The notes under the pieces: model-generated | The model's input: the letters and a program-made list of their open reading frames with translations, nothing else | The model's database searches: none | What the model was told of the DNA's origin: nothing | Made by a program: the position numbers and the translations under genes | IMG/VR virus record: IMGVR_UViG_3300032003_000001 | Location: 1-64,000 of that record | DNA: 64,000 nt | Source: a virus | Strand: one strand, 5' to 3' | Part shown: one piece after another, positions 8,305 to 35,853 of the stretch | Layout of the letters: every line of letters begins with the position of its first letter | How positions within the stretch are numbered: the first letter of the stretch is position 1

Positions 8305-8309
8305 ACCCC

Positions 8310-8633: not shown

Positions 8634-8649
8634 CATCCGGGGGTAGGTC

Positions 8650-9393
8650 ATGGCCCTGGCGATCGACGCCTCCACACCCGCGATCGCCACCCAGACCACC
8701 GGCACCGTCGCCACCGTCGCCACCGCATCATTCACCCCACCGTCGGGGTCGGTGCTGCTCATCGGCTGGGCCGCCAACAGCGCCACGGGTGCGGACCCGA
8801 CGACACCGACCATCACCGACAACCTCGGCGTGCACCTGACCTACTCGCTGGTCGCGCACTCGCACCGCGCCGACGGGCCCGCCGCCGACGGGCAGGCAGC
8901 CATGTGGACCGCGGTCGTCGCCTCGTCCGCTGCGATGACCGTGACCGTCACCAACGGCGCGGCCTCCGGATCGCGCGAGGCGGCGCTGCGGGTGTGGGTG
9001 CTGACCGGCGCGGACACCACCACCCCGGTCGGGGCGAGCGGCAAGTCCGGGTCCACTTCCGCCGGCAGCATCGCCCAGAACTACACCGCGCAGATCACCG
9101 GCGGGCAGGGCTTTCTCGCCGACGCGGACTGGGATCTCAAGGGGACCCAGACCGCCGGCACCGGCACCACCCGCGACGGCTCCGCGAACGTGTCCTCCGC
9201 GTTCACCTACGGCTTCTTTCGCCGCACTTCGGCTGACGACGTCAACACGGTCAGCAACACGATCAACGCGACGTTGGGCGGCACCAGCACCAACGTGCGC
9301 TGGGTGTACGCCGAACTCCGCCCCGCCACCGCCGCCACCGTGTCGGACGCCCCGATCCGCCGCCCGCTGATGGGCGCCCTGCTCCAGGTCTGA
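8650..9393 (+). CDS. hypothetical Thr/Ala/Gly-rich virion-module protein
   Basis: 247-aa track ORF in the late operon. Confidence 0.5.
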   Translation: MALAIDASTPAIATQTTGTVATVATASFTPPSGSVLLIGWAANSATGADPTTPTITDNLGVHLTYSLVAHSHRADGPAADGQAAMWTAVVASSAAMTVTVTNGAASGSREAALRVWVLTGADTTTPVGASGKSGSTSAGSIAQNYTAQITGGQGFLADADWDLKGTQTAGTGTTRDGSANVSSAFTYGFFRRTSADDVNTVSNTINATLGGTSTNVRWVYAELRPATAATVSDAPIRRPLMGALLQV

Positions 9394-9404
9394 GGAGGCT
9401 CCAC

Positions 9405-9887
9405 GTGGCAGCACAGCGCGGCGTGTACACGGTGAGTTTTAGCGAGCAGACCATCGCCGCCGCCTCCGGCGACTACGACCTGTTCGAACTGGTGCCGGCC
9501 GACGACCGGCCCATCGAGCTGGTCGCCCTGTTCCTCGGCAACAAATCCGAGGTCGGCGACGCCCAGGACGAAATGCTGTCCATCAACATCATCACCGACT
9601 ACACCAGCTCGTCGAACGGCACCTCGACGACACCACGGCCGCTGGACTCCCGCGACGGGGCGGCCGGGTTCACCGCCGAGGTTCTCGGCGCCACCGTGGC
9701 CACCACGGGCACGCCGATCACCACCCATGCAGACACCTTCAACGTCCGTGCCGGATGCCAGCTGATCTTTCCAGAGATCATGCGGACGAAGGCCGACCAG
9801 GGCGACACGGCGATCTACATCCGCCTCACCTCGGCCGTAGCCGACGATCTCACCCTGTCCGGAACCGCGTACGTCCGCGAGCTGTAG
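9405..9887 (+). CDS. hypothetical virion-module protein
   Basis: 160-aa track ORF, GTG start after GAGGAGG. Confidence 0.5.
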   Translation: MAAQRGVYTVSFSEQTIAAASGDYDLFELVPADDRPIELVALFLGNKSEVGDAQDEMLSINIITDYTSSSNGTSTTPRPLDSRDGAAGFTAEVLGATVATTGTPITTHADTFNVRAGCQLIFPEIMRTKADQGDTAIYIRLTSAVADDLTLSGTAYVREL

Positions 9888-9895
9888 GAGGCGCG

Positions 9896-10909
9896 GTGCC
9901 GCTGTTCGGGCCGGACACCACCTGGCAGCATGTCCGGCCCCGACAGCGCCCGGTGCCGTCGGTCACCGCGGGCGGAACGGTCTTCACGCAGGACCTCGCC
10001 GGCTCCATCACCCCGTCCGGCGTGCTGCAGCGCAGCACCGGTAAGGCGCTCACCGGCACGCTCACCCCGGGTGGCGTGCTGCTGCGCGCCGCGGGCAAGA
10101 TCCTCGCGGGTTCCGCCGCCCCGACGGGCGCGCTCATCAGGCAGACCGCGAAAACCTTCACCGGCACCCTGACTCCGAGCGGCACGCTGGCGACGATCCG
10201 GGCGATCCTGCGCACCTTCGCCGGGACCATCACACCGACCGGGACGCTGACCAGGCAGGACCAGAAGCCACTCGGCGGATCGGTCACCCCCGCCGGGGCC
10301 CTGGTCAAGCAGACCACCAAAACCTTCGCCGGCAGCCTCACGCCCACCGGGGCGCTCAGCGTCATCAAGGCGGTCCTGCGCACCTTCGCCGGGACCCTGA
10401 CCCCGGCGGGCGCCCTCGCCCGGCAGGACCAGAAGCCACTGGCCGGCACCCTCGCCCCCGCCGGCACCATCACGAGGCAGACCGCGAAGCGACTCGCCGG
10501 CACCGTGACCCCCACGGGTGCCCTCGCGGCGGCGAAGGCCGTCCCGCGCTCGTTCGCCGGCACACTCACCCCGTCGGGGTTGCTGGTCCGGCAGGCCGGG
10601 AAGGCGCTCGCCGGCAACCTCACCCCGGCCGCGGCGCTGACCCGCACCACGACCAAGACCGTCGCCGGAACCCTCACCGCCACAGGCGCGCTGCTCAAGC
10701 AGGCCGCGAAGCGGTTCGTCGGCACCGCGGCACCCGCCGGCGCGACGACCACCCAGACCATCGTCGGGGGCGCCTTCCACCGCGCCACCTCGACGGCCTC
10801 CATGACCGCCCGGCGCACCTCCACCCCGGCGGTAGCCGCCCGCCGAGCCTCCACGGCAGCCGTGACCGCCCGGCGCACCTCCGTGCCGACCGTCACCGGA
10901 GGTGAGTAG
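9896..10909 (+). CDS. tandem-repeat protein (14 x ~18-aa AGTLTPxGxLxRQxxKxx repeats)
   Basis: GTG 9896 in the frame of track ORF 9755..10909. The repeat array is read directly from the translation. The C-terminus has 3-4 TARRTSxPxV repeats. Confidence 0.65.
   Translation: MPLFGPDTTWQHVRPRQRPVPSVTAGGTVFTQDLAGSITPSGVLQRSTGKALTGTLTPGGVLLRAAGKILAGSAAPTGALIRQTAKTFTGTLTPSGTLATIRAILRTFAGTITPTGTLTRQDQKPLGGSVTPAGALVKQTTKTFAGSLTPTGALSVIKAVLRTFAGTLTPAGALARQDQKPLAGTLAPAGTITRQTAKRLAGTVTPTGALAAAKAVPRSFAGTLTPSGLLVRQAGKALAGNLTPAAALTRTTTKTVAGTLTATGALLKQAAKRFVGTAAPAGATTTQTIVGGAFHRATSTASMTARRTSTPAVAARRASTAAVTARRTSVPTVTGGE
9998..10771 (+). repeat. 54-60 nt tandem coding repeats, about 14 copies
   Basis: Repeat units AGSITPSGVLQRSTGKAL / TGTLTPGGVLLRAAGKIL / ... 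/ VGTAAPAGATTTQTIVGG. Confidence 0.8.
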
Positions 10910-11808
10910 TGGCCGCCGAGGTGTTCTTCACCAACGCGAGCGAACTGGCGACCCTGACCAACACCTTCGAGGTGTCCGGGGTCGCCACGGACCCGACCAC
11001 GGTGTCCCTGATCGTCACCGACCCGTCGGGCACCACGACGACCTACACCTACGCACTGGCCGAGATCACCAAGGACTCGACGGGCGTCTACCACAAGGAC
11101 ATCGCCTGCTCGACCGCCGGCACCTGGCAGTACGTGTGGATCGGCACCGGCACCGCCACCGACGTGGTCGCCGGGACCTGGGCCGTCGTCTCGACCGCGC
11201 TGCAGAACCTCTACTGCACCCCGGAGATGCTGAAGAACCGCAAAGGCATCACCGACAGCTTCGACGACTTCGAGATCCTCGGCGCCTGCCGGGCGGTCGC
11301 GAGGTGGATCGACGAGCAGTACTGCGAGCGGTTCTTCTACCGGATCACCGCGACGAAAACATTCGGCGCCGGCGACTGGTACTGCCTGAAGGTCCCCGAC
11401 CTGGTCAGCATCACCACCCTCAAGACCGACGAGGACGGCGACGGCGTCTACGAGACCACCTGGACCGCCGACGTCGACTACCAGCTCCTGCCGGTCAACG
11501 CCGCCACCGGGCTGGAACAGAAACCGTACAACGAGATCAGAGCCATCGGCTCCCGGCTGTTCCCGGTGATATACGGCCGGGGCGTGCGGACCAACCGGGT
11601 ACAGATCGCGGGAGTGTGGGGCTGGCCCGCTGTCCCCGCACCCGTCACCGAAGCAGCGAAGATCCTGTCCGGCGACTACCTGAAGCTGGGCGGCATGGCC
11701 TTCGGGGTGGCCGGCTATGGCGAGTACGGCGCGGTACGCGCCCGGATGAGCAACCCGGCCATGGAAATGCTCAACGCCTACCGGAAGAACCCGGTCCTGA
11801 TCGGCTGA
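10909..11808 (+). CDS. head-tail connector/adaptor protein (gp6-like C-terminal domain, extra N-terminal beta-rich domain)
   Basis: 299 aa. The C-terminal two-thirds (LYCTPEMLKNRKGI...FDDFEILGACRAVARWIDEQY...) resembles gp6-like connector proteins. Position supports the call. Confidence 0.6.
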   Translation: MAAEVFFTNASELATLTNTFEVSGVATDPTTVSLIVTDPSGTTTTYTYALAEITKDSTGVYHKDIACSTAGTWQYVWIGTGTATDVVAGTWAVVSTALQNLYCTPEMLKNRKGITDSFDDFEILGACRAVARWIDEQYCERFFYRITATKTFGAGDWYCLKVPDLVSITTLKTDEDGDGVYETTWTADVDYQLLPVNAATGLEQKPYNEIRAIGSRLFPVIYGRGVRTNRVQIAGVWGWPAVPAPVTEAAKILSGDYLKLGGMAFGVAGYGEYGAVRARMSNPAMEMLNAYRKNPVLIG

Positions 11809-11822
11809 AGCGGCGGTGAGCG

Positions 11823-12239
11823 TTGGCCACCATCAGCCAGATCCGCGACGCCATCGGCACCCGCCTGCTGACCCTCGACCAGATGCGGGTCCAGGACGAG
11901 TTCGGCGAGGACCCGCCCGTGTCGGCCAATGCCTGCGTTGCGGTGGTCCAGTACGCCGGAGCGACGTACGACTCCGTCTTCGGCGGTCAGGGGGACGCTC
12001 TGCTCTTCGGGGTCATCGTCCTGGTCAGCCGGGGGTCCGACCGCATCGCGATCGACACGCTCGACGCCCTCAGTGACCCCAGCCCCGGCTCGACCACCTC
12101 GGTCCGCAACGCGGTCAACGGCAGCCTCGGCGGGGTGGTGGCAGCGGCCACGGTCGCCACGGGCAGCGACTACAAGGACTACCCGATCGGCGAGCAGAGC
12201 TACGTCGGGGTCGAGTTCGTCGTGCAGGTGATGACCTGA
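11823..12239 (+). CDS. head-tail joining / tail-terminator-like protein
   Basis: 138 aa with a TTG start. The call rests on size and position between the connector and tail tube genes. Confidence 0.45.
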   Translation: MATISQIRDAIGTRLLTLDQMRVQDEFGEDPPVSANACVAVVQYAGATYDSVFGGQGDALLFGVIVLVSRGSDRIAIDTLDALSDPSPGSTTSVRNAVNGSLGGVVAAATVATGSDYKDYPIGEQSYVGVEFVVQVMT

Positions 12240-13264
12240 TGCGCTGGCTCGCCGCCGAACCTGGCCCGCAGTTTTCCGTGTTGGACGTGCACACCGGCTA
12301 CGTGGAGGCGCTGCGCGCGGCCGGCGAAACGGTGGTCACCTACCCGCTCGGCGCCGCCCTCACCTTCTACGACTCCGTGCTCCTGCAGTCCGGCAGCCAC
12401 ACCTTCCACAAGGCGCTGAGCGGACAGCAGGCCACCGAACTGGCCGCCGACCGGCTCGCCGGCGCGCTGTACAAGGTCCGGCCCGACGTGCTGCTACTCA
12501 CCAGCGGGTTCTTCATCGACACGGACCTGCTCGACGTCGCCCGCCGCGACGGCGTCCGCGTCGTGGCGATCCTGACCGAGCAGCCGTACGAGCACGCCCG
12601 CGAACTGGACCTGGCCCGCCACTGCGACCTGGTCCTGCTGACCGACCCGGTCAACATCGGAGACTTCCGGGGCGTCACCCGCGCCGCCCACGCCCCGCAC
12701 TGCTACCGGCCCGACGTGCACCACCCCGGCCCCGCCGACCCAGCCCTGGCCTGCGACCTCGCGTTCGTCGGCACCGGCTACGCCTCCCGGATCCGGTTCT
12801 TCGAGGCGATGGATCTGACCGGGCTGGACGTGCTCCTCGCCGGCAACTGGCAGCAGCTCGACGAGGACTCGCCGCTGCGCCGGTACGTGGCCACCGGCCC
12901 CGACGACTGCCTCGACAACACCCGGGCCGCCGACGTGTACCGCTCCTGCTCCGTCGGGATCAACCTGTACCGCCGCGAAGCCGAGTCACCCGACCGGATG
13001 CAGGGCTGGGCGGTCGGACCCCGCGAGGTCGAAATGGCCGCCATCGGCTGCTTCTACCTGCGCGACCCCCGCCCCGAGGGCGACCAGCTGCTCCCGATGC
13101 TGCCCACCTTCCACAGCCCGGAGCAGGCCGCCGACCAGATCCGCTGGTGGCTCCACCACCCCGACCAGCGCGCCGCGGCCGCGCTCAAAGCACGCGACGC
13201 CGTTCAGGACAGAACCTTCGACCGCGCCGCCGAGCGGCTGCTGCGGCTGCTGGATGAGGAGTAG
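12239..13264 (+). CDS. CgeB-like (GT1-fold) glycosyltransferase
   Basis: 341 aa. LAFVGTGYASRIRFFEAM...LLAGNWQ...GINLYR...REVEMAAIGCFYL resembles the CgeB/DUF3880 family. Confidence 0.6.
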   Translation: MRWLAAEPGPQFSVLDVHTGYVEALRAAGETVVTYPLGAALTFYDSVLLQSGSHTFHKALSGQQATELAADRLAGALYKVRPDVLLLTSGFFIDTDLLDVARRDGVRVVAILTEQPYEHARELDLARHCDLVLLTDPVNIGDFRGVTRAAHAPHCYRPDVHHPGPADPALACDLAFVGTGYASRIRFFEAMDLTGLDVLLAGNWQQLDEDSPLRRYVATGPDDCLDNTRAADVYRSCSVGINLYRREAESPDRMQGWAVGPREVEMAAIGCFYLRDPRPEGDQLLPMLPTFHSPEQAADQIRWWLHHPDQRAAAALKARDAVQDRTFDRAAERLLRLLDEE

Positions 13265-13267
13265 ATC

Positions 13268-13672
13268 GTGGGACGAATCGCCGGCAGGAATGCCGCCATC
13301 TACCTGGGCGCAACCACCTCGGCGGCCGCGAGCCCGCTGAGTTTCCAGAACAAGTGGTCGATCAAGTTCACGTCGGACAAGATCGACGTCACGTGTTTCG
13401 GCGACGCGAACAAGAACTACGTCGCCGGCCTCCCCGACGCCCAGGGCGACCTGTCCGGCTTCTTCGATGACGCGTCCGCCCAGACCTACCCCGCCGCGAC
13501 GGACGGCCTGAGCCGCAAGTTCTACCTGTACCCGTCGTCGAACACGCCGACCGTGTACTTCTTCGGCACCGTCCTCGCCGACCTGTCGATCGACGGGTCC
13601 GTCGCCGGCGCCGTCGAGGTGTCTGCGTCCTGGAGTGCGGCAACACAGATCCAGCGGGTACCGGCCACATGA
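13268..13672 (+). CDS. major tail (tube) protein
   Basis: 134 aa. GRNAAIYLG...DKIDVTCFGDANKNYVAGLPDAQGDLSGFFD resembles the TP901-1/phi13-type tail tube. Position is upstream of the chaperone and tape measure. Confidence 0.6.
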   Translation: MGRIAGRNAAIYLGATTSAAASPLSFQNKWSIKFTSDKIDVTCFGDANKNYVAGLPDAQGDLSGFFDDASAQTYPAATDGLSRKFYLYPSSNTPTVYFFGTVLADLSIDGSVAGAVEVSASWSAATQIQRVPAT

Positions 13673-19240: not shown

Positions 19241-20761
19241 GTGGCGCTGGCGGTGGACTACGCATCCGGCCCCATCGCCCCGACAGCACTGCTCGCGGCC
19301 GGTGTCACCGACGTGTGCCGCTACCTGGCCCCGCTCGGGCGGGGCGACTGGAAACGGATCAAGGTGGGGGAGTACCGGGATCTGCTGGCCGCCGGGCTGC
19401 GGGTGACCCTGGTCTGGGAGTCGTACGCCACGGACTGGCTCGGCGGCGGCGCAGCGGGTCGGGAACACGGCGTTGAGGCGGGACGGCAGGCCACGGATCT
19501 GGGCTACCCGGCCGGTGCCACCGTCTTCGGCTCCTGTGACTTCGACCTTGCCGCTACGGAATGGCCGGCCTGCCGGGACTACGTGGCCGCGTTCGCCGCC
19601 GCCCTACATGCTGGCGGGTACCGGCCCGGTGTGTACGGGCCGTGGGATGCGCTGCAACGCTGCGCCGACGCCGGCCTGGTCGCCGTGTTCTGGCAGGCCG
19701 GCATGTCCCGGGCCTGGTCGCAGGGCCGCAACGCCCGCGACCACCCGCGCGCCCACCTGATCCAGCGCGCCCCGGCCCGGATCGGCGGCACGCCGGTGGA
19801 CCGGTCCGACATCGTCGTCCCCGCCTGGGGGCAGGCATCAACCTCGGGGGCAGTCATGACCTACGCGCCAGCCGACCTGCTCGCAGTGCGCCAGTACGTG
19901 ATGGGTCACACCGGCCTGGACGCAAGCAGCGTAGGCATCGCCGGTGACCCCGCCCACGCGAGCAGCGGGGGCTACCACGAAGGCAACGACGATCTCGCAA
20001 ACGCCGGCCGGTTGGACTCGGACTACTCGAAACGCGAGTCCCCCCGCGACCGGCCGGGCAGCAACGCGGCGAGCGCCGAGGACATCGGCGACTTCAACCG
20101 CGACGGCAAGACGCTGCGGCAGCTGAGCCTGTTCGTCGTCGCGAAATGCCAAGCCGGGGACCCGCGCTGCAACGACATCCGGGAGATCATCTACACCCCG
20201 GACGGGTCGGCGGTGCGCCGCTTCGACCGGCTCGGCATCCGCTCGACCGGCGACAGCTCACACCTCTACCACACCCATCTCTCGTTCTTCCGGGACAGCG
20301 AGGGCCGCCGCGCGGGCGACGGCAACTTCCTCGGCCTGCTCCGGGAATTCTTCGAAGGAGTCACCATGGGCAGCGAATGGCATGTTGGGGAGCCGAACGG
20401 TGCGGCCCTGACCCAGGGCGCCCCCGGGTACGCCGGGCAGCAACGCGACACCGCGCTCGCGTTCACGTGGCAGCAGGCCACCACCGCCGCAGCCATGGCG
20501 GCGGCGAACGGCGCCAAACTCGACCAGCTGCTCACCGCGGCCACCGCGGAGACCGCCCGGGACGCGGCACTCAAAACCGTGGTCGACGCCCTCGCCGCAG
20601 CCATCACCGCCGGAGGTGGGAGCGTGGACGTGGCCGCCATCCTCGCCGGCGTGGCCGACGCCGTCCACGACGCGGTCGAGCCCCTGGAAACCGAGATCGC
20701 CGACCTGCGGCACCGCCTCGCCGCCGCCGAACGCGCCGCCGCCGACTCCCTCGACTCCTGA
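19241..20761 (+). CDS. endolysin (DUF1906/Rv2525c-like glycoside-hydrolase domain plus a second His/Asp-rich domain)
   Basis: 506 aa. The N-terminal VDYASGPI...RYL...LVWESY...CDFD pattern, then SGGYHEGNDD...SSHLYHTHLSFFRD, then a helical C-terminus. Confidence 0.75.
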   Translation: MALAVDYASGPIAPTALLAAGVTDVCRYLAPLGRGDWKRIKVGEYRDLLAAGLRVTLVWESYATDWLGGGAAGREHGVEAGRQATDLGYPAGATVFGSCDFDLAATEWPACRDYVAAFAAALHAGGYRPGVYGPWDALQRCADAGLVAVFWQAGMSRAWSQGRNARDHPRAHLIQRAPARIGGTPVDRSDIVVPAWGQASTSGAVMTYAPADLLAVRQYVMGHTGLDASSVGIAGDPAHASSGGYHEGNDDLANAGRLDSDYSKRESPRDRPGSNAASAEDIGDFNRDGKTLRQLSLFVVAKCQAGDPRCNDIREIIYTPDGSAVRRFDRLGIRSTGDSSHLYHTHLSFFRDSEGRRAGDGNFLGLLREFFEGVTMGSEWHVGEPNGAALTQGAPGYAGQQRDTALAFTWQQATTAAAMAAANGAKLDQLLTAATAETARDAALKTVVDALAAAITAGGGSVDVAAILAGVADAVHDAVEPLETEIADLRHRLAAAERAAADSLDS

Positions 20762-24792: not shown

Positions 24793-25197
24793 TTACGGCA
24801 ATTCTTTGCCCAGGTCATCGCGGTGCACGATGATCTCCTGGCCCGGATCGGTCGGGTCCGGGACGCGGATCACGTCCGCCTCGTCGACGAGCTGCCCGCC
24901 GTCGAGCAACTCACGGATTCGCCGCGCGGCCAGGGCATCGGGCCCACCGGCCTGCACCTCGGCGTGGGCCTCCATGTCGCCGTCCATGGCGGCGGTGATC
25001 CCGGCGCGGATGCTGGCCTCTGCCTCGCCCGGGTAGTAGCCGCGGGACGCCCAGGCGGCGGCCTCGACCGCGGTCAGCTCGATCCCCTGCTCGCGCAGCG
25101 CCCAGGCCAGGCGCATCCAGTCGCCGGCGAGCGCGTAGGTGTTGAGCTGGGTGGCCCGCTCGCGGAAGGCGTTGATCCACGCGATCTTCTCGCTCAT
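24793..25197 (-). CDS. hypothetical protein (candidate switch component)
   Basis: 134 aa from ATG 25197, the tail of track ORF 24793..25974. The start is 7 nt from a TATGGT -10, so the transcript is near leaderless. Confidence 0.55.
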   Translation of the reverse strand: MSEKIAWINAFRERATQLNTYALAGDWMRLAWALREQGIELTAVEAAAWASRGYYPGEAEASIRAGITAAMDGDMEAHAEVQAGGPDALAARRIRELLDGGQLVDEADVIRVPDPTDPGQEIIVHRDDLGKELP

Positions 25198-25208
25198 GCC
25201 CTCAACCA

Positions 25209-25224
25209 TACGGCACGTGCCGTA
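25209..25224. promoter_or_regulatory. operator-like palindrome copy 2 (TACGGCACGTGCCGTA, perfect)
   Basis: Lies in the spacer of the minus-strand TTGTAT-N16-TATGGT promoter. Confidence 0.6.
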
Positions 25225-25254
25225 AAATACAAGGCGGCACCCCCCTTGACCTTT

Positions 25255-25270
25255 TACGGCACATGCCGTA
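25255..25270. promoter_or_regulatory. operator-like palindrome copy 3 (TACGGCAcaTGCCGTA)
   Basis: Lies in the spacer of the plus-strand TTGACC (25246-25251)-N17-TAACGT (25269-25274) promoter. Confidence 0.6.
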
Positions 25271-25314
25271 ACGTTGTGGATGTCAGGGAGAGCGGACACA
25301 CCAGGGAGCCAGCG

Positions 25315-25596
25315 ATGACCACCACCTACCAGCCCGGCGACGAGATCAAGGTCGGCGAGGTCACCATCACCCTTGCCCGCCGCGGATCGTTCCGCAACGC
25401 CGCCGCCCAGCGCTGGAGCTGGTACATCGCCGGCACCGACTACTACAGCGAGTGCGGCACGCCCACCGCGGACGAGGCTGTCGACGACGCCTACCGCACC
25501 CTCAACGGCCCCCGCTGCTCCTGCGGCGAGCCGGCCACCATGACCGCCGCCACCAAGCCCAGCTGCCCCCGCTGCTACGACCGCCACGCCGACTGA
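25315..25596 (+). CDS. Cys-rich small protein
   Basis: 93 aa from ATG 25315. C-terminal CSCG...CPRC zinc-ribbon-like motif. Confidence 0.5.
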   Translation: MTTTYQPGDEIKVGEVTITLARRGSFRNAAAQRWSWYIAGTDYYSECGTPTADEAVDDAYRTLNGPRCSCGEPATMTAATKPSCPRCYDRHAD

Positions 25597-26329: not shown

Positions 26330-26725
26330 CTACCGGTTACAGGGATGATGGCTGTCCCCACCACCGACCAAGATCCGGGTCAAGAGCGCGGCGAGAAGGA
26401 GCAGGGCGACCGCCCCACCGAGGATGACGGCCACGTGCCCGGCCGCCCAGATGAACAGCTCCACAACCCCCCAGGCCACCGCGCCGGCAGCTCCGAGTCC
26501 AGCCCCGACGGAGGCCCCGACAACGGCCGCGCGTCGTGTGGTGGTCTGTCGTGGTCCTGTCGTGGTTGGTTGCGCCGGGCGACGAACCACGACATCCCGC
26601 AGGACCACCCGGACCACGTCGCCGCGGCGTTCGGCGGACACCAGCTGGCCCCGCTCCTCGGCGAGCCGTAGAGCTGTGCGGGTGGCCTCAGTGACCGGCC
26701 AGACGCGGACGACGAGTTCGTTCAC
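26330..26725 (-). CDS. membrane protein (Spd-like position)
   Basis: 131 aa. C-terminal half has 2-3 TM segments. GTGA overlap with the upstream gene. Confidence 0.5.
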   Translation of the reverse strand: MNELVVRVWPVTEATRTALRLAEERGQLVSAERRGDVVRVVLRDVVVRRPAQPTTTGPRQTTTRRAAVVGASVGAGLGAAGAVAWGVVELFIWAAGHVAVILGGAVALLLLAALLTRILVGGGDSHHPCNR

Positions 26726-26958
26726 CGCGACCGCCCGATCCAGTACAGGACGGTGAGCAGCGCGACCACGCCGAGGATCGGGGCCAGGGCGGCACCGACG
26801 AGGGCACCCAGCTCGCGCCAGAACGTGCGGCGGGCTCCGTGGTGGGCCTTGCGCAGGCCCACCCAGTCGGAGCGGGCCCGGACGGTGCGCTGGTAGCTGG
26901 CGCCGAGGCTGCCGATGAGGACGCCGCCGATCAGGACTCCGATCATGAAGGTGTTCAC
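26722..26958 (-). CDS. small two-TM membrane protein
   Basis: 78 aa from GTG 26958. GTGA overlaps on both sides. Confidence 0.5.
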   Translation of the reverse strand: MNTFMIGVLIGGVLIGSLGASYQRTVRARSDWVGLRKAHHGARRTFWRELGALVGAALAPILGVVALLTVLYWIGRSR

Positions 26959-27221
26959 CGGGTGCCTGCCCGCTGCAACTCGCGAACCTTGTCGTAGGCG
27001 CGACGACCCAGCCGGATCCGGGTGCCCCGCCCGCGGCAGCGGGGGCAAAGCGCGACGCCGCGGAAGCGCACCAGCAGCCAGACGATCACGGCCGGTCCGC
27101 GCCGACGGCGGACCATCGCCCCCCGGCAGGACCGGCACCGCACGAGCGGCCGGCCCGCGCAGAGGGCGGCATACCAGCCTCCGGCGAGCACCGCGAGGAG
27201 GACAAGGGCAGCGACGCGCAT
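26955..27221 (-). CDS. membrane-anchored CxxC...CxxC zinc-ribbon protein
   Basis: 88 aa from ATG 27221 (GTG 27224 is an alternative). N-terminal TM segment, RCRSCRG and CPRCRGRG. Confidence 0.5.
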   Translation of the reverse strand: MRVAALVLLAVLAGGWYAALCAGRPLVRCRSCRGAMVRRRRGPAVIVWLLVRFRGVALCPRCRGRGTRIRLGRRAYDKVRELQRAGTR

Positions 27222-27243
27222 CACTGGGACACCGCCATGATCT

Positions 27244-27396
27244 GTTGCGGCACAGCCGCAACATGTCGCGCGGCGGCTACATGATCCGCAACAGCTGTGA
27301 CCTGCACAAACAGGCCGCTGTTGCGTGTAGCGGCACCGCGCCGCAGAAGCCCGAACCCAGAAGACGGGCGCCGCGACGGGCAGGTCGAGCCGCAAC
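27244..27396. repeat. five copies of GCCGCAAC / GTTGCGGC 8-mers directly 3' of the translocase gene (clt-like)
   Basis: Copies at 27244-51 (inverted), 27255-62, 27285-92 (TCCGCAAC), 27320-27 (inverted, GTTGCGTG) and 27389-96. Confidence 0.6.
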
Positions 27397-27398
27397 CG

Positions 27399-29513
27399 CT
27401 ACACACCGGACACCTCCTGCCGGCGGCGCTGCGCCGCGTCCACGTCTTTCGCCTTCGCGCCCTTCACGACCCGGCTCCCGTCCTCCCTGTCCCGCCCGTC
27501 GACCGACGGCACGGACAACGCGCGCAGCTTCGCCGAGACCGAATCCGGGGTGGCGTCCGCGTAGTGCTCCGGCATCCGCTCTGCGAGCCGGCCAGCGAGC
27601 TGCGACCAGGACAGCCACGCCTCGCCGCCCCGGTACACGCCCCGGGCGTCGACAAGCACGTCGCGGATCTGCCGCGCCACCGCCTCGCCGGCCGCCTCGC
27701 CGGTGAGCAGGCCGAGCCGCTCCCGGTGCGCCCGGGCGGCGGTAAGGATGACCTCGACGTCCTCCCGGTCGGCCAGGTGGAAACGCGTCAGTGGGGTGTC
27801 GTCGGTGGCCCCGTAGAGGTAGCCGACGCCGCGGTACTCCAGGCCGGTCGGTAGGGCGGACGCGTCGTAGCCTTCCTGGTAGGCGTCCCCGCCGAGGACC
27901 GCGATGGACACGTCGCGGTTGCCGCACCTCAGCGCGATCCGCACGGTGTGGTTGTCGCGGTAGCGGTTGAACAGGCGGCCCACGTCGCCGGCGCCGACGC
28001 CGGACGGCTTCTGTGAGCAACTGACCAGGATCACCCCAGCTGACGGGCCGACCGCCATGATGAAGCTGAGCAGGCCGGCGAGTTCCTTGTTGACGTCCTG
28101 GTCGTCGGTCTCGAAGTAGACCTGGAACTCCTCGATCACCAGCAGCCATACCCGCAGGTCCGGGTACCGGGGATCCCGGGAGAGTTCCTCGGTGAGCTTG
28201 CCCTCCGGGCACATGTCGACCGGCAGCGACGACAGCAGCTCGTTCACCCGCACGATGTGCGCCTTCACGTGCTTGAGCAGGTCCAGGAGGTTCTCGATCG
28301 GGTCGCCGTCCCGGTTCGGTGTCGTTCCGTAGATCATCCGATCGGCGACCAGGGCGAACTGCCGCCAGTCCGGGCTGTTCTTGCCGTCCACTACGAAGAT
28401 GCGCACGTAGGGATCCAGCGCCGCGTACAGCGCCATCAGCCGCGCAGTGAACGTCTTGCCCTTACGCGGCTGGGCGCCGACCAGGATCGACACCCACAGC
28501 AGGAACAGCTCGACCCGGCGAGCCCGCTCGTCGAGGCCCATGAAGAACGGCTGCCAGATGTTGCGCTGCTTCCCGTCGAGCAGCGGGGTCCGCCCGGCCG
28601 GCACGGCGAGCGGGTCCTCGTCGGCGACCCACAGCACGTGCCGCCGGTGCGAGGACCGGTCCTTGAGGAGGAAGACCTGGTAGATGCTGACGTCCAGACC
28701 GGAGGCGATCTTCCCCTTGGCTTTGACCGCGTCGTCGAAGGTGGTGCCGAACGGCAAGTCGACCACCACGCGGGAACCGTCACCGTCGCGGCTCATCACC
28801 GATCCGAACTCGACCTTCTGCCCCGGCTTGTCCGGGTGCCCCAGCCCGGCGGCGTAGTAGGCGCGCAGCACGATGTCGGAGTTCAGCCTCCGGAACCGCG
28901 GCGTGACCACCGCCGGGTTGATGATGCGCCGATCCGCCGGCCGCCCCATGCGCGCGAGCACGGGCATCGCCGCCGCGCCGAGCAGCCACTGCGCCCAGCC
29001 CGGCGCAGCCAAGTACGCGCAGCTGCCGGCGGCGGAGACCGGGAGGATGCCACCGCACACCACGATCCCGCGCCACAGCCGCGCCGCGCGCAGCCGCGCC
29101 TCGACCCGCAGCGCCGTGTCGACATCCCCGCCGCTGACCGCCAGCTGGAACCCGGCGGACAACTCGGGATGGAACCACCAGCCGGCGGTCCGGGCGACCA
29201 GCCGCCACGCCCCCCGCGGCGCGTAGACCGCGGCCAGCGGCAGGTACCGCACCGGTGTGCGCACGCCGTGGTACGCCGCCCGGTGCCCGAGCAGGCGGCC
29301 ATGCCTACGTAGCGACCTGCGGATGTTCTCCGTACCGCGCCATGCCGACGGGACGACCGGCAGCAGGTCGAGGCCCTTGGGTGCAACATCGACAAGCTTC
29401 GGGCCGTGCTCGACCGGCGGGTCGTCCAGCTCCACCTCGAAGCTGGTGTCGAACTGCTCCTTCGGCGGCTTCTCCGGGTCGAACGGCCCGAGGATCTCCG
29501 GCTCCGTGGTCAA
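27399..29513 (-). CDS. FtsK/SpoIIIE-family DNA translocase, TraB-like
   Basis: 704 aa, TTG start after GAGGAG. N-terminal TM region, Walker A GAQPRKGKT, Walker B VWLLVIEEF. Confidence 0.85.
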   Translation of the reverse strand: MTTEPEILGPFDPEKPPKEQFDTSFEVELDDPPVEHGPKLVDVAPKGLDLLPVVPSAWRGTENIRRSLRRHGRLLGHRAAYHGVRTPVRYLPLAAVYAPRGAWRLVARTAGWWFHPELSAGFQLAVSGGDVDTALRVEARLRAARLWRGIVVCGGILPVSAAGSCAYLAAPGWAQWLLGAAAMPVLARMGRPADRRIINPAVVTPRFRRLNSDIVLRAYYAAGLGHPDKPGQKVEFGSVMSRDGDGSRVVVDLPFGTTFDDAVKAKGKIASGLDVSIYQVFLLKDRSSHRRHVLWVADEDPLAVPAGRTPLLDGKQRNIWQPFFMGLDERARRVELFLLWVSILVGAQPRKGKTFTARLMALYAALDPYVRIFVVDGKNSPDWRQFALVADRMIYGTTPNRDGDPIENLLDLLKHVKAHIVRVNELLSSLPVDMCPEGKLTEELSRDPRYPDLRVWLLVIEEFQVYFETDDQDVNKELAGLLSFIMAVGPSAGVILVSCSQKPSGVGAGDVGRLFNRYRDNHTVRIALRCGNRDVSIAVLGGDAYQEGYDASALPTGLEYRGVGYLYGATDDTPLTRFHLADREDVEVILTAARAHRERLGLLTGEAAGEAVARQIRDVLVDARGVYRGGEAWLSWSQLAGRLAERMPEHYADATPDSVSAKLRALSVPSVDGRDREDGSRVVKGAKAKDVDAAQRRRQEVSGV

Positions 29514-29538
29514 CTAGCGTCTCCTCGATCAGGGGGGA

Positions 29539-29586
29539 GCGGGGTGCGGTCAGGGACCCCTACCAAAGGACAGGACCGCACCCCGC
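29539..29586 (-). promoter_or_regulatory. 13-bp perfect inverted repeat just upstream of the translocase gene
   Basis: GCGGGGTGCGGTC (29539-29551) and GACCGCACCCCGC (29574-29586), 22-nt loop. Confidence 0.45.
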
Positions 29587-29592
29587 GGTCTC

Positions 29593-29727
29593 CTACTGCG
29601 ACCGCTCGACGCGGTCAGCCAATCGATCGGTCCGCGCTGCAACGTCCTTCAGCCCGGCCTCCCGGTACGTCTCGGCGTCCTTGCGCAGACGCTCGGCCCG
29701 CTGTGCCGCGGTCTCGGTGTCCGCCAT
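29593..29727 (-). CDS. 44-aa helical protein (below the track cutoff)
   Basis: Hand-translated MADTETAAQRAERLRKDAETYREAGLKDVAARTDRLADRVERSQ. TGATG overlap and high GC3. Confidence 0.4.
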   Translation of the reverse strand: MADTETAAQRAERLRKDAETYREAGLKDVAARTDRLADRVERSQ

Positions 29728-29903
29728 CACTGCCTCGCCAGCCGGGCGCGGTTGTCCGCCGCCGCGGCCTCCAGCTCTTCGCGGTGCCGGGCGGGCAATG
29801 CGCGCAACGCGTCCTGGCCGGCCTGGGTCTTGCGTGCGTCCCGCAACATCGCCGCCGCGGCGGCGTTCAGGACGTCCCTGCTGGTCTGCTCGTCGTTAGC
29901 CAT
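29727..29903 (-). CDS. 58-aa helical protein (below the track cutoff)
   Basis: Hand-translated MANDEQTSRDVLNAAAAAMLRDARKTQAGQDALRALPARHREELEAAAADNRARLARQ. GGGGAG SD. Confidence 0.45.
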   Translation of the reverse strand: MANDEQTSRDVLNAAAAAMLRDARKTQAGQDALRALPARHREELEAAAADNRARLARQ

Positions 29904-29918
29904 CTCTCGATCTCCCCT

Positions 29919-30719
29919 TTACTCCGTGCGGACCGTCGTGGTCCGCCTCGATGTCGCCTTCGCTGCGGCAACCGCTGGCTTGGGCGCGGCGAGCGCATCC
30001 CGGATCGGCTTGGTCAACCGCTCGTAGGTGCGCTGCTTCGACTCCGGCAGCTGGAGTTCCGTCACGATCCGCGCCGCTGTCGCTCCTTCGGCGGCGAGGA
30101 GAACAGCGCGCGCCTGGAGCAGCACCTCGGCCGCTTCCTCCTGGGCCGCTTCCTCTTCCTCGACCCGGGCCTGTTCCGACAGCTCTTTGATCTTGTCGCG
30201 GCGGCGGTCGAGATGACGGCGCACCACGATCAGCACGTGCAACGCGACTGCTGACAGCGCCGGCCACACCGCGGCCCCGGCAACCGCGCTGACCTGCTGA
30301 TATCCCCAGGTGAACCGCTCATGCGACACGGTAGCGACACGATCCAGCACCCAGAAGGCGGAGATCGCGTTACCGCCGACGCTCAGCAGCACCGTCAACC
30401 CGAACGCCAGCCAGCAGTACGACCGGACCCGCCAGGGTGCGTCATGGGTCAGGAACGTGGCGAGCAGGCCCACGATGGAGAACACGTCCAGGCCGATCGG
30501 GGCCACCCCGCACAGCCACGGCGACCACGCCATGATCCGTTCACCGAAGGTGAACAGGCCGTGGTACGACATCGCGAATGCGATCACCAACACGCCCAGG
30601 AACGCCGCCACGATCGCCGGCCAGAGAGCAGCCAGGTCACCGGCGAGCAGGGGGGCGTACCACGTGTGGCGCGCCTCTGGCTCGCTGTGTGCTTCCTGAT
30701 CTGCGACAGCCTGCGTCAT
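29919..30719 (-). CDS. DUF2637-like polytopic membrane protein with charged coiled-coil tail
   Basis: 266 aa. About 4 TM helices, then EQARVEEEEAAQEEAAE. This architecture accompanies TraB in actinomycete conjugative elements. Confidence 0.6.
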   Translation of the reverse strand: MTQAVADQEAHSEPEARHTWYAPLLAGDLAALWPAIVAAFLGVLVIAFAMSYHGLFTFGERIMAWSPWLCGVAPIGLDVFSIVGLLATFLTHDAPWRVRSYCWLAFGLTVLLSVGGNAISAFWVLDRVATVSHERFTWGYQQVSAVAGAAVWPALSAVALHVLIVVRRHLDRRRDKIKELSEQARVEEEEAAQEEAAEVLLQARAVLLAAEGATAARIVTELQLPESKQRTYERLTKPIRDALAAPKPAVAAAKATSRRTTTVRTE

Positions 30720-30832
30720 CGCTGACCGGCCCTCCTCATCTCGTAATTACTCTGCCAATATGGCAAGGTAATGCAGGACAGGGCACCGCGACAAGATGCT
30801 GTGCCGAAATGGCAGAGAAAGGCCCTAGGATC

Positions 30833-31072
30833 ATGGCGATGCCGAGACCCAGGTGGGAGCCCAAGACCGACGAGCAGCGCGACGCGATCGCTGCCGTCGT
30901 CCAAGCGACAGCGGCCGCCACCGCCGCCGACGAGGCGCTGCGCGACGCGGTACTCGCCGCCGACCGGCTCCAGGTCCCGCGCTCCCACCTCGCCGAGGTG
31001 ACCGAGATCCCGCCGCGGACCTTCTACCGCCGCCTCGCCCAGTGGAGCGAGCCGACCGGCGCCGGAGAGTAG
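30833..31072 (+). CDS. small HTH DNA-binding protein
   Basis: Tail of track ORF 30578..31072. ATG 30809/30833/30839 are possible starts. VPRSHLAEVTEIPPRTFYRRL. Confidence 0.45.
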   Translation: MAMPRPRWEPKTDEQRDAIAAVVQATAAATAADEALRDAVLAADRLQVPRSHLAEVTEIPPRTFYRRLAQWSEPTGAGE

Positions 31073-31077
31073 GCGGG

Positions 31078-31305
31078 TCACCGCGCCGCCACACACCGCA
31101 GCAGCAGAAAATCCGCCTCACCCAGCACCCCCACGTCCACCGGCACACCCAGCGCTACGAGCACCCCCGTGAGGTGCTCGTAGGCGCAGGACATGGACCC
31201 CTGATCCGTGGACACGTCGGCGCCGGCGTGACGCAGGCGGAGCAGAACCTCGGCGAGGACCAGCGCCGGGTCGACCTCGACACGCACCAGTTCACCGCTG
31301 CGCAT
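31078..31305 (-). CDS. hypothetical 75-aa protein
   Basis: Last 75 codons of track ORF 31078..31761, from ATG 31305. 14-nt overlap with the upstream gene. Confidence 0.4.
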   Translation of the reverse strand: MRSGELVRVEVDPALVLAEVLLRLRHAGADVSTDQGSMSCAYEHLTGVLVALGVPVDVGVLGEADFLLLRCVAAR

Positions 31306-34112: not shown

Positions 34113-34373
34113 GTGATGATATTGGCGGGCCGCCAAGCTGGGAGTTTCGCCGTGCCCGCCGAGTACATCCGTGTCTATGAGTCCGTCGTCGCCCGGATCC
34201 GTTCCGGCGAATGGCCGCCGGGCCACCCGCTGCCGTCGATCTCCAAGCTCGCCGAGGAACTGGACACGAGCCAGACCACGGTCAAGTCCGCGTTGATGCT
34301 GCTTGGTCGGGATGGGTGGACAAGGGGACAACAGGGCAAGGCCACGTACGTGGCGGCTGATCCACCGCTCTGA
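34113..34373 (+). CDS. GntR-type winged-helix regulator (DNA-binding domain only)
   Basis: 86 aa. YESVVARIRSGEWPPGHPLPSISKLAEELDTSQTTVKSALMLLGRDGW. Confidence 0.6.
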   Translation: MMILAGRQAGSFAVPAEYIRVYESVVARIRSGEWPPGHPLPSISKLAEELDTSQTTVKSALMLLGRDGWTRGQQGKATYVAADPPL

Positions 34374-34499
34374 TCATGATGAGTTGGGCGTGAGTTTGGA
34401 TCATGAGAGTCCGTGGTAATCCCTAAGAACCCCCGAGACGGTTCGGGCAGGCCAACGCCATGATCAGCGGGGCCGCGGCAGGTCGGGGAGACGCCTGAA

Positions 34500-34549
34500 C
34501 TTCCTTGACACGGAAGAGGTCACTGGTTCAAACCCAGTATCGCCCACCA
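34500..34549 (+). other. 3' portion of tRNA-Val(GAC), from anticodon stem to CCA, not a complete gene
   Basis: CTTCC-TTGACAC-GGAAG, AGGTC, ACTGG-TTCAAAC-CCAGT, ATCGCCC-A-CCA. No matching acceptor 5' strand or D arm upstream. Confidence 0.75.
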
Positions 34550-34555
34550 GGAAAA

Positions 34556-34608
34556 ACACCGCCGATTCGCGATCTCCACGCAGAGATCATGAGTCGGCGG
34601 TGTGTTTT
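34556..34608 (+). terminator. compound hairpin followed by a T-run
   Basis: ACACCGCCGA (34556-65) pairs with TCGGCGGTGT (34594-603), then GTTTTCG. Inner hairpin GATCTC/GAGATC. Confidence 0.55.
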
Positions 34609-34632: not shown

Positions 34633-35853
34633 TCACCCTGACTTGCGCCGCTGCCGGGCGTTGCGCGCCCGGTCGAACCGGCTGTCGTTCGAGTGGGTGT
34701 AGCGCATCGCCGAACGCACGTCGGCATGCCCCATCAGCGCCATGCGGTCGTGCAGCTCCAACCTGTCGGCCGGGTCCTCCGGCACGTCGTTGGCCAACGT
34801 GGTCCCGTAGGTGTGCCGGGTGTCGTGCGGCGTCGGCAACGGCTCGTCGATCAGCGGCGTCCACAACGGCTGGCCGTCCGCACCCCTGGCCGGCCTGCCC
34901 CGCTCGTCGAGCACCGGCACCCGCAGGGCACGGTTCCACACCCGCCGCAACCACGTCGGGTAGCGCATCGGCCCGCCCTCGCTCGCCGTGAACACCAGCC
35001 CGTCAGGGGCAGTCGCTAGCATGACAGGGCGCAGCCGGCCGAGCAGCTCCGGACTCACCGACGCGTTACGGAACCCGGCGGCCTGGCGGGTCCGGGCACC
35101 CTTCGGGTAGTCCCGGACGGTCCCGTCGCGTTCCATGACCGGGCCCAACCGGATCAGGCTGGCCCGCAAGTCCACCGCCGGGCGGGAGACCCCGGCGATC
35201 TCCTCCCACCGCGCACCCGTCTCGAACAGGGTCTCGACGAACAACCGCGCGTCGCGGCGGCCGGGAAACAGTGTGTCGAGCCGGACGAGGATCGCCTCCT
35301 CCTCGTCGGGGTCGATGATGCGTGCCTCGTGCGCCGGCGGCATCGGCGCCTTCACCCGCCGGGCCGGGTTCGAACGGATCATCCCGGCGTCGACCGCCAG
35401 TTCCATGGCCGCCTTCATCACGTTCAGGGCGGCGATGATGACCCAGCCCCCGCGCCGGCAGCCTTCACACTTCTTGGACCGGCAGTCGTCGGCGTGGGCG
35501 GTCTCCAGGTCGATGACCCATTTCTGCACGTCCGGCTTCAGGATCCGGCCGACCGGGGTGTCGCCCCAGCGGGGCCGGACGTGGCACCGGAAGATCGAGG
35601 CGTCCCGGGCGCGGGCCGCCTTCGAGATCCGGCGCGTCCCGCAGTACTTGTCCCACACCTCGCCGACCGGGGTCTTCGACAGCCGCGGGTCGATCAGTTC
35701 GCCGCGGCGGATGTCCGCCTCCATGTCCACGGCCCACTCGGTCACGACCATCTTGAGCTTGTGGGTCTCGGTGCGGCGGCTGCCCGGGTCCCCGGGGGTC
35801 AGGTAGACGGTTGCGGCCCACAGGCCGGACGGCAGTTGCCGGACCCACGCCAT
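34633..35853 (-). CDS. int: tyrosine integrase
   Basis: 406 aa. C-terminal HDTRHTYGT...LMGHADVRSAMRYTH catalytic pattern. Adjacent to the tRNA-derived att core. Confidence 0.9.
   Translation of the reverse strand: MAWVRQLPSGLWAATVYLTPGDPGSRRTETHKLKMVVTEWAVDMEADIRRGELIDPRLSKTPVGEVWDKYCGTRRISKAARARDASIFRCHVRPRWGDTPVGRILKPDVQKWVIDLETAHADDCRSKKCEGCRRGGWVIIAALNVMKAAMELAVDAGMIRSNPARRVKAPMPPAHEARIIDPDEEEAILVRLDTLFPGRRDARLFVETLFETGARWEEIAGVSRPAVDLRASLIRLGPVMERDGTVRDYPKGARTRQAAGFRNASVSPELLGRLRPVMLATAPDGLVFTASEGGPMRYPTWLRRVWNRALRVPVLDERGRPARGADGQPLWTPLIDEPLPTPHDTRHTYGTTLANDVPEDPADRLELHDRMALMGHADVRSAMRYTHSNDSRFDRARNARQRRKSG

Follow-up and report, generated by a model that had tools for sequence, protein, structure and literature searches.

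Transfer of double-stranded DNA (dsDNA) by TraB is the distinctive conjugation of mycelial actinomycetes and has so far been treated as a property of plasmids and of the integrative and conjugative elements of actinomycetes (AICEs). Can a tailed phage carry such a system, and what would it use it for? The question is raised by a gene cassette at ~26.96-31.09 kb of a 64,000-nucleotide stretch of viral DNA, positions 1 to 64,000 of IMG/VR record IMGVR_UViG_3300032003_000001 (the whole stretch is called the window below). A first-pass annotation, made from the letters alone, had read positions 26330-30719 as an AICE- or plasmid-type dsDNA-transfer module in a phage. Our data on homology, fold, and a clt-like repeat site bear out this central claim, placing a TraB module of that type in a complete temperate phage genome. 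We conclude with high confidence, from sequence comparison, that the cassette shares homology with the module by which AICEs of the Prim-Pol/RepAM type transfer dsDNA in conjugation. As to its role, we lean toward the view that it would let the phage genome transfer or spread as dsDNA without lysis, by analogy with known TraB systems.

Identification of a TraB-type translocase

The central gene of the cassette (27399..29513, minus strand) has a TTG start and encodes a TraB-type dsDNA translocase of 704 residues with an FtsK/SpoIIIE fold. Its translation contains the Walker A motif VGAQPRKGKT and the Walker B motif LLVIEEF, and hydropathy together with an AlphaFold2 (AF2) model predicts N-terminal helices at residues 61-190, with hydrophobic segments at ~150-190. 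These features agree with the initial description of an FtsK/SpoIIIE translocase with an N-terminal membrane domain. In the model (confidence, pLDDT, 72.6), long N-terminal helices and a small alpha/beta domain precede a core of the RecA type, and the C terminus forms a winged helix at residues ~619-702 (pLDDT 83-92), the sequence clades of which track the repeat word described below.

Searches of Pfam, NCBIfam, and PDB sequences with the translocase gave nothing usable, and it was therefore identified through pairwise homology, profile homology, and fold. Its sole direct family match was phrog_1358, "FtsK/SpoIIIE-like" (2e-14). In a pairwise alignment, the protein matched pSVH1 TraB, which has been characterized by experiment, at E 3e-32, with 29% identity over 355 residues covering the whole motor. 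A tblastn search of plasmids matched 44 actinomycete records. Small Streptomyces plasmids made up most of these, among them pSVH1 and a 12.2-kb plasmid of S. viridosporus (NC_008792) that we take to be pSG5. When the model was compared with the PDB by Foldseek, FtsK motors came first (6T8B, 2IUT, and 2IUS; E 1e-13 to 1e-11), followed by TcpA, a coupling protein of conjugation, and then EccC and EssC. A clustering with packaging or exclusion ATPases had been considered as the outcome that would speak against TraB; what we found was the fold of an FtsK motor, with no terminase among the listed PDB matches at E <= 0.001.

More than 1333 homologues of the translocase were collected, mostly near 55-60% identity and ~700 residues long. 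The ratio of nonsynonymous to synonymous substitution rates (dN/dS) against an 86%-identical relative was 0.18, a value that indicates purifying selection on the gene.

A clt-like repeat array varies with the predicted recognition domain

Directly after the translocase stop lies a 177-bp spacer (27222..27398) that contains five copies of cTGTTGCGGc, in both orientations, at 27389-27396, 27318-27325, 27285-27294, 27255-27264, and 27242-27251. The word TGTTGCGG is present 10 times in the window where 2.5 copies would be expected, a number reached in none of 100 shuffles, and three of its copies fall within a 51-nt part of the spacer. For 107 related loci, we then counted the commonest 7-mer in a 240-nt stretch surrounding and following the translocase stop. 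Arrays with at least five copies were present in 94 of the 107, in AICEs and phages alike (median, 7 copies; control mean, 2.4).

The position of the array is thus conserved, and its word is not. TGTTGCGG is retained in the closest relative, and a 68%-identical relative (L004) has seven copies of GTAGCGGC at matching offsets. Elsewhere the word is CGTTCCG (viral contig L015), GGTAGCGG (an AICE), or GGTAGCAG (another prophage), and separate clades of the winged helix at the C terminus have the variants GGTCGCGG, TGCCGCG, GTTCCGCG, and GGTAACG. Such co-variation is what would be expected of a clt site built from TraB recognition sequences (TRS), and the same pattern, TraB together with 8-bp clt repeats, has been described (PMC4447253; PMC3429521). 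It is this comparative pattern across relatives that makes the case for a putative clt, and on that basis the "candidate clt" of the first-pass annotation holds up. The spacer also modifies the picture of a single minus-strand operon: the genes are as described, but the series is broken at 27222-27398 by the clt-like repeats.

The cassette is exchanged as one unit

The cassette is located between the lysis genes and the immunity/integration region. It is made up of a divergent helix-turn-helix (HTH) gene with a palindrome, the gene of a 266-residue membrane protein, two tiny genes, the translocase gene, the repeat spacer, and a zinc-ribbon gene, after which come two further small membrane genes that are translationally coupled. 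In one IMG/VR contig (L015; IMGVR_UViG_3300026088_000018, 7883-12479), the segment that corresponds to 26961-31085 of the window is replaced by a diverged allele, whereas the integrase, GntR, regulator, endolysin, and last two small membrane genes remain 92-98% identical in DNA. The L015 allele has a translocase of 52% identity, a canonical DUF2637+HTH protein, its own divergent small regulator, and its own zinc-ribbon protein, in addition to its own repeat word. Because the swap replaces 26961-31085 as a whole, we regard the cassette as one exchangeable unit; the mosaic boundaries show that this unit reaches ~31085 and takes in the divergent HTH gene. The least conserved parts of the cassette are the recognition domain, the clt, and the zinc-ribbon gene.

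The swap between near-identical phages could also point to a module of lysogenic conversion or competition, in which the pump would exclude incoming AICEs, plasmids, or phages, or would mobilize the chromosome or islands instead of the phage genome. The position between lysis and integration genes, usual for lysogeny-expressed accessory genes, is compatible with such a role, as is a weak PADLOC match to mad8 (E 3e-5). TraB proteins are also known to act on clt-like chromosomal sequences (PMC3429521). The mad8 match, however, covers the P-loop region only, and none of the other PADLOC defense-system models matched. Furthermore, a cognate array in cis whose word changes with the recognition domain is needed for self-transfer, not for exclusion. 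We consider a competition module unlikely and, since the cognate recognition site is kept in cis, take lysis-independent transfer as the best explanation of the cassette. A known defense system was likewise rejected as the identity of the cassette, the mad8 match being at the level of the P-loop.

The cassette lies in a complete temperate phage genome

The window has a G+C content of 70%. The translocase gene is found on ENA metagenome contig ERZ27256858 k141_3433476 (71,353 bp), of which we fetched the capsid-gene flank. On this contig, 7,212 bp bridge the right end of the window (61852-64000) to its left end (1-12211) and encode TerL, the portal, and an S78 protease. The offset in contig coordinates equals the assembler k-mer of 141, and a wrap round the contig ends is the sole fit, which leads us to a circular assembly of 71,212 bp.

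According to PHROGs, the left 21 kb encode, on the plus strand, a head-maturation protease, an HK97-type capsid protein, a head-tail adaptor, a tape-measure protein, and tail proteins, and an endolysin gene (Pfam Rv2525c_GlyHyd-like) is found at 19241-20761 on the same strand. The right 28 kb carry small plus-strand genes of the early-region type, among them ANT/Bro, a DNA methyltransferase, DUF5131, GIY-YIG, TerD, and DUF7873. PHROGs and Pfam together thus account for the terminase, portal, protease, HK97-type capsid, tape measure, tail, endolysin, and integrase of a temperate member of the Caudoviricetes. We conclude with high confidence that the window represents most of a complete, circularly assembled 71.2-kb temperate genome of the siphovirus type. 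The cassette had been said to be contiguous with a full set of virion, lysis, and lysogeny genes, and this is correct, with TerL and the portal on the 7.2 kb beyond the window. The nearest relatives of the cassette genes are found mainly in Micromonosporaceae and allied mycelial genera, and a mycelial (filamentous) soil actinomycete akin to the Micromonosporaceae is the probable host.

A tyrosine integrase of 406 residues (34633..35853, minus strand; Pfam Phage_integrase) is encoded beside an attP core (34499..34549, plus strand) that exactly reproduces the final 50 nt of actinobacterial tRNA-Val(GAC). ARAGORN called an odd 80-nt tRNA-Val at 34470-34549, and the tRNA-like segment scored 24.7 bits with the Rfam tRNA model, under the 29-bit threshold. 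Compared with genomic tRNA-Val genes, identity is confined to the last 50 nt, and the 5' half is unrelated sequence. No second copy of the att/tRNA segment was present within the window. This, the phage genes on both sides, and the circular assembly identify the site as attP instead of attL or attR, and the sequence is therefore that of a free or excised phage genome, not of a prophage beside an island. The predicted tRNA-directed integrase was accordingly confirmed, and an integrase, a tRNA att site, and a Tra protein, three features of an AICE, are all present in this phage.

These results bear on the suspicion that the cassette is an inert passenger or an artefact, that is, a decaying fragment of a captured AICE, an AICE beside a prophage, or a chimeric assembly. 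The genome was assembled from a metagenome, and tRNA genes are targets of AICEs and prophages alike, which can lie in tandem (PMC3218068). Against this, phage genes flank the cassette on both sides in the circular 71.2-kb genome, which has a single int and attP, and neither a second integrase nor, by tblastn with Prim-Pol and DUF3631, an AICE-type Rep gene is found nearby. All open reading frames are intact, the translocase gene has the low dN/dS of 0.18, the same synteny recurs in independent contigs of other samples and in isolate genomes, and the phage-borne genes form deep clades. We regard a passenger or artefact as most improbable; an AICE beside a prophage and an assembly chimera were specifically rejected on the single int/att, the lack of a Prim-Pol or DUF3631 Rep match, and the conserved synteny. 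Lysis-independent transfer of the phage genome remains the reading that we develop below.

Several other observations were made in this genome. Genes for a glycosyltransferase, a methyltransferase, a nucleotide-sugar epimerase, and a second glycosyltransferase lie at 2827-7574 (plus strand), between the capsid and head-tail connector genes, and may modify the virion by glycosylation. Three to four copies of GTGCCGTAA-type words at 25209-25271, in the divergent intergenic region between genes 24793-25209 (minus strand) and 25315-25596 (plus strand), could be the operator of this unrelated accessory gene pair. The stretch from attP to the integrase stop codon contains a long, near-perfect hairpin (34552-34607), probably a terminator that acts in both directions; the hairpin also gave a spurious miRNA-like Rfam match on both strands. 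Partial copies of the tRNA-Val 3' end (~39-46 nt, without the 5' half) occur in L178, L190, L143, and L160 (Dactylosporangium, Phytohabitans, Asanoa, and Planosporangium) and look like att remnants of other elements sharing the same integration site, and in several Micromonospora contigs two copies of this 3' end lie 0.5-3 kb apart. Naming the host from the tRNA-Val 3' end was tried and abandoned, as the 32-mer concerned is common to many actinobacterial genera and is not diagnostic.

Related modules occur in AICEs and in several phage lineages

Relatives of the translocase were found at 80 loci from isolate genomes and metagenome-assembled genomes, most of them with Prim-Pol and/or DUF3631 (RepAM-type) genes and an integrase gene within 10 kb. 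The translocases of these genome loci (L033-L112) are 54-62% identical to that of the phage, and the loci are mostly AICEs with Prim-Pol/DUF3631, xis, and int. One such AICE has the order NUDIX, membrane protein, translocase, two small genes, Prim-Pol, DUF3631, xis, and int. Elements of this kind are classic AICEs by the definition of Ghinet et al. (PMC3218068). An 18.4-kb circular plasmid of Streptomyces sp. NBC_00562 (NZ_CP107792), with GntR, NUDIX, DUF2637, zinc-binding protein, FtsK, Prim-Pol, and int genes, can be read as an excised AICE.

The survey of related phages that the first-pass annotation had called for identified translocase relatives of 31-68% identity in 26 IMG/VR viral contigs of 12-111 kb, with 24 of the 26 at 46-68%. 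No AICE replication markers were present in these 26 contigs. At least ~20 viral contigs of several deep lineages carry the cassette; lysis or tail genes are near the translocase in many of the 26, and five further lineages have tape-measure, tail, virion, or large-terminase genes within 10 kb of the module. Prophage-type loci were also found in a few isolates: Micromonospora peucetia (CP109071, around 2.49-2.51 Mb; L005), M. carbonacea DSM 43168 (L064), Phytohabitans maris (L073), and Micromonospora sp. NPDC023956 (L074). One viral contig (L028) has a second, shorter FtsK/SpoIIIE-like gene (12252-13532; 426 residues; phrog_1358, 1e-33) directly after the TraB-like gene, and no repeat array was detected there after the first gene. 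Among 50,697 phage records, megablast found no match to the block or to the left arm of the genome, and tblastn found none to the translocase (at 1e-5) or to a canonical DUF2637+HTH partner; a distant relative used as the tblastn query reached remote FtsK-like phage genes only. None of the isolated phages searched carries the cassette.

In the window itself, tblastn with Prim-Pol and DUF3631 gave no match, and RepSA was not searched for. As a replication module of its own was not encountered, we describe the element as a phage carrying an AICE transfer module and not as an AICE. The pSAM2-type gene content and order that had been proposed was right as to an AICE-type TraB module, but the nearest counterparts are Prim-Pol/RepAM AICEs of Micromonosporaceae, Kribbella, Nonomuraea, and Actinomadura.

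In a neighbor-joining tree of 105 translocases, the phage-borne genes formed several deep clades outside one large AICE clade and were more divergent among themselves than the AICE-borne ones. This topology hints that the transfer modules of AICEs and phages may share a deep history rather than a recent capture.

Predicted partner proteins

Upstream of the translocase, the gene at 29919..30719 (minus strand) encodes the 266-residue membrane protein, for which hydropathy and AF2 (pLDDT 75) predict four transmembrane (TM) helices, the fourth of which continues into a long coiled coil ending in a small HTH. Foldseek found nothing significant for this protein, and it did not match Pfam DUF2637 (PF10935) even at E 10. 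Two of its homologues, P0162 and P0164, scored 31.3 and 26.6 bits with the DUF2637 model, over the threshold of 22.8, the L015 counterpart scored 39 bits, and hhalign of the protein with the pPaSha2 DUF2637 protein gave 83% probability (E 9e-6). In total, 45 homologues with strongly conserved motifs were found, all in metagenome-type sources, and DUF2637+HTH proteins are encoded upstream of the translocase in L015, L016, L022, and AICEs. These comparisons support a distant relationship to DUF2637. The "DUF2637-like 4-TM protein with a coiled-coil tail" of the first-pass annotation therefore stands in its four helices, coiled coil, and distant family link, but not in a direct match to the Pfam model. 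The protein is a candidate channel or DNA-handling partner of the translocase.

Two small helical proteins had also been predicted here and were found as such. The first (29727..29903, minus strand) has 58 residues, is soluble, and matched no family; its open reading frame has a third-position G+C content (GC3) of 0.92. The second (29593..29730, minus strand; 45 residues) has a counterpart of 62% identity in L015, and its stop codon abuts the leader hairpin of the translocase gene. Neither has a hydrophobic segment.

Beyond the repeat spacer come three small membrane proteins chained by GTGA start/stop overlaps at 26955-26958 and 26722-26725, one of them a zinc ribbon, just as had been noted. 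The zinc-ribbon protein (26955..27221, minus strand; 88 residues) has an N-terminal TM helix and two CxxC pairs and gave weak DnaJ_CXXCXGXG and Zn_ribbon matches. By tblastn, relatives follow the clt in many AICE and phage loci, with counterparts in L015 and L004. The next protein (26722..26958, minus strand; 78 residues, two TM helices) is 94-95% identical in L015 and L024 and 61% in L004, and its gene lies outside the segment swapped in L015.

The last (26330..26725, minus strand; 131 residues) has a soluble N-terminal half and ~2 C-terminal TM helices. Comparison with two relatives of ~92% DNA identity placed 19 of 26 and 16 of 27 substitutions, respectively, at the third codon position in this frame, and because substitutions concentrate there, we take the minus-strand frame as the real gene. 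The same pattern led us to reject the public plus-strand gene call at 26348-26671 (26345-26671 in the open reading frame list, 108 residues). A GC3 frame plot alone is misleading at 26330-26725.

Small membrane proteins encoded by coupled genes next to traB resemble the Spd arrangement, as judged from the GTGA overlaps and TM predictions, and the resemblance is one of organization only. The Spd homology suggested for 29919..30719 did not hold: BLASTP of this protein with pSVH1 SpdB2 gave E 0.29, that is, no similarity, and SpdB2 has no DUF2637 match. No cassette protein resembles SpdB2, and for this reason we use the label "Spd" as an analogy only.

Candidate control elements

Divergent from the cassette, a gene at 30833..31072 (plus strand) encodes a small HTH protein of 79 residues with weak matches to Xre-like-HTH and HTH_23, a candidate cassette regulator of the kor/TraR type. 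It belongs to the segment replaced in L015, where the allele has its own small divergent regulator, and L004 has a divergent HTH_17 gene in the same place. In the 113-bp divergent intergenic region, a repeat search revealed an inverted repeat, CTCTGCCA(N)...TGCCATATTGGCAGAG, at 30747..30820, a candidate operator/promoter of the cassette, and a ribosome-binding site, GAGGAGG, precedes the ATG at 30719.

A second element was found by repeat search and alignment in the leader of the translocase gene (29514..29592, minus strand). A perfect 13-bp stem (29539-29551/29574-29586) is followed by CUCCCCCC, which can pair with the ribosome-binding site GGAGGAG just 5' of the TTG start. The stem-loop is kept in four diverged cassettes with three compensatory pairs, a comparison of only four sequences, and ~175 nt around the leader are 77-80% identical in DNA between cassettes whose flanks have diverged beyond recognition. 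The stem-loop is a candidate attenuator or translational brake on a toxic gene. As traB is toxic when deregulated (PMC4447253), the palindrome and the leader stem-loop would fit tight control of such a gene.

The GntR-type regulator predicted at 34113 was verified (34113..34373, plus strand; 86 residues; Pfam GntR 1.5e-15). It consists of a winged helix only, and its relatives adjoin the translocase gene in both phage and AICE loci, making it a candidate TraR/KorA-like regulator. A scan for sigma-70 promoters found none in the block, an uninformative result that is expected for a high-GC actinomycete.

Comparison with known transfer systems

The repeat word of pSVH1 is GACCCGGA, and that of the phage is TGTTGCGG. 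The phage system resembles the TraB-clt systems of pSVH1, pSG5, and pIJ101 in having a motor between a predicted membrane part at the N terminus and a putative DNA-recognition domain at the C terminus, with ~8-bp repeats near the 3' end of the gene, coupled small membrane genes, and a GntR-type regulator nearby. It differs from the Streptomyces systems in that only the motor aligns, and SpdB2, SpdB3, and Spd79 are unrelated to its DUF2637-like and zinc-ribbon partners. The carrier is a 71-kb tailed phage and not a plasmid. In addition, the Streptomyces clt repeats have been described as direct (PMC4447253), whereas those of the phage are in both orientations.

The likeness to Prim-Pol/RepAM AICEs, such as that of Dactylosporangium roseum (CP073721, L006), is closer in kind. 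They share a translocase of the same family, an upstream membrane protein, repeats right after the translocase stop, a nearby zinc-ribbon or zinc-binding gene, a short GntR protein, and a tRNA-targeting tyrosine integrase. Prim-Pol, DUF3631 or YfjI, NUDIX, and xis are present in these AICEs and virion genes are absent; the phage, in contrast, has none of those replication genes and a full packaging, head, tail, and lysis set. On the NBC_00562 plasmid, the translocase is only ~30% identical to that of the phage, and the upstream membrane protein contains a DUF2637 domain. The best full-length plasmid match is pPaSha2 of Pseudonocardia alni (CP052773, L002; 41.9 kb, circular), a distant one with 32% identity over 88%. 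This replicon, deposited as a plasmid, carries holin, Bet recombinase, and integrase annotations and, directly upstream of its FtsK-like gene, one for DUF2637; it could represent a phage-plasmid or else an excised prophage of similar type.

Streptomyces phages Gilgamesh, Geonosis, Jaresh, and AndoPrime also encode a P-loop FtsK-like ATPase (phrog_1358). These actinophage genes are remote from the translocase (no tblastn match at 1e-5; 12-16% identity in BFVD fold matches) and belong mostly to large lytic phages. Their authors discuss only possible roles in replication or development, and a clt, a DUF2637 partner, or a relationship to AICEs is not reported for them. Their presence in lytic phages nonetheless invites the proposal that the cassette helps lytic infection, its translocase and membrane proteins pushing replicating phage DNA across septal cross-walls and so carrying a single infection into adjacent compartments before lysis, without stable conjugative transfer. 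The structural evidence for the transfer reading applies equally to this proposal, which differs from it only in timing and outcome. The late genes, however, are on the other strand from the cassette, which has a divergent regulator of its own and occurs in temperate genomes beside immunity and integration genes. Its relatives are found among AICE genes and not among the FtsK-like genes that lytic phages carry. A helper of lytic infection thus appears quite improbable, and we return to lysis-independent transfer as the favored function.

Phage-plasmids and hybrids of prophages with integrative and conjugative elements in other phyla join virion genes with plasmid or conjugative functions. To our knowledge, these hybrids involve plasmid replication/partition or single-stranded DNA conjugation by a relaxase and a type IV secretion system; here, the mechanism would be the single-protein dsDNA transfer by TraB. 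SpdB2 homologues have been noted in the temperate Streptomyces phages phiC31 and VWB, where an aid to the spread of phage DNA in the mycelium was suggested (Thoma et al. 2015, PMC4447253). To the extent described there, these phages have a lone SpdB2-like gene without TraB or clt, whereas the phage studied here has a translocase, a recognition site, and several partners and no SpdB2 homologue. A 2008 review of AICEs regarded their conjugation modules as not phage-related, and our literature search, mostly of open-access papers, found no description of a phage-borne TraB/clt cassette.

A model for lysis-independent transfer of the phage genome

We propose a mechanism by analogy with TraB/clt of pSVH1 (PMC4447253, PMC3429521). 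Either Int would excise the prophage, using the tRNA-Val att site, or a circle would be present after infection; in both cases the phage genome would be circular dsDNA with the clt in cis. TraB hexamers, anchored in the membrane by their N-terminal helices, would bind the repeats through the C-terminal winged helix and pump the phage genome, entire and double-stranded, across septal cross-walls or contacts between hyphae. Channel formation and spread may involve the DUF2637-like protein, the zinc-ribbon protein, and the small membrane proteins as partners, and in the recipient or new compartment Int would integrate the genome again at tRNA-Val. Expression of the cassette is probably kept very low, like the kil-kor control of traB, to judge from the regulator transcribed divergently, the GntR-type protein, the start at TTG, and the hairpin of the leader with its anti-Shine-Dalgarno stretch.

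Several points weigh against this model or the evidence on which it is built. The sequence is a metagenome assembly without a cultured host. The translocase misses the Pfam FtsK_SpoIIIE model, which pSVH1 TraB reaches at 5e-12, and the small proteins have no detectable similarity to characterized Spd proteins. An equal or higher count of the top 7-mer was seen in 21 of 630 control windows, so that the repeat count of the window alone is only modestly unusual. The translocase tree is a quick neighbor-joining tree with a distant outgroup root. The cassette sits where temperate actinophages usually keep lysogeny-expressed accessory or defense genes, and allele swapping is typical there. Lastly, AICEs need a replication step against loss from the donor, and tblastn with Prim-Pol and DUF3631 revealed no AICE-type Rep in the phage; the use of phage replication genes in its place could trigger lytic growth.

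Implications

A translocase, its site, and its partners appear to have been selected in several phage lineages, and therefore a second transmission route, independent of receptor and lysis, may exist. Tentatively, we suggest that the temperate phages of mycelial actinomycetes with such cassettes, a diversified group, may be dual-mode, entering as virions from outside and, as excised circles, conjugating through their own TraB/clt and spreading in the mycelium without lysis or an adsorption receptor. Since the phage-borne genes branch deeper than the large AICE clade, Prim-Pol-type AICEs could then descend from such phages by loss of virion genes, or the reverse; we hold this wider proposal to be possible rather than probable. 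Either direction, if true, would link AICEs and phages by descent. There is a practical aspect as well: finders of AICEs and prophages that rely on Pfam FtsK_SpoIIIE would miss translocases such as this one. The prophages in isolates, the 177-bp candidate clt, and the natural specificity variants TGTTGCGG, GTAGCGGC, and CGTTCCG provide testable material. If lysis-independent transfer is true, it would bear on the spread of lysogeny in a multicellular host, on phage host range, on gene flow among antibiotic producers, and on the link between AICEs and prophages.

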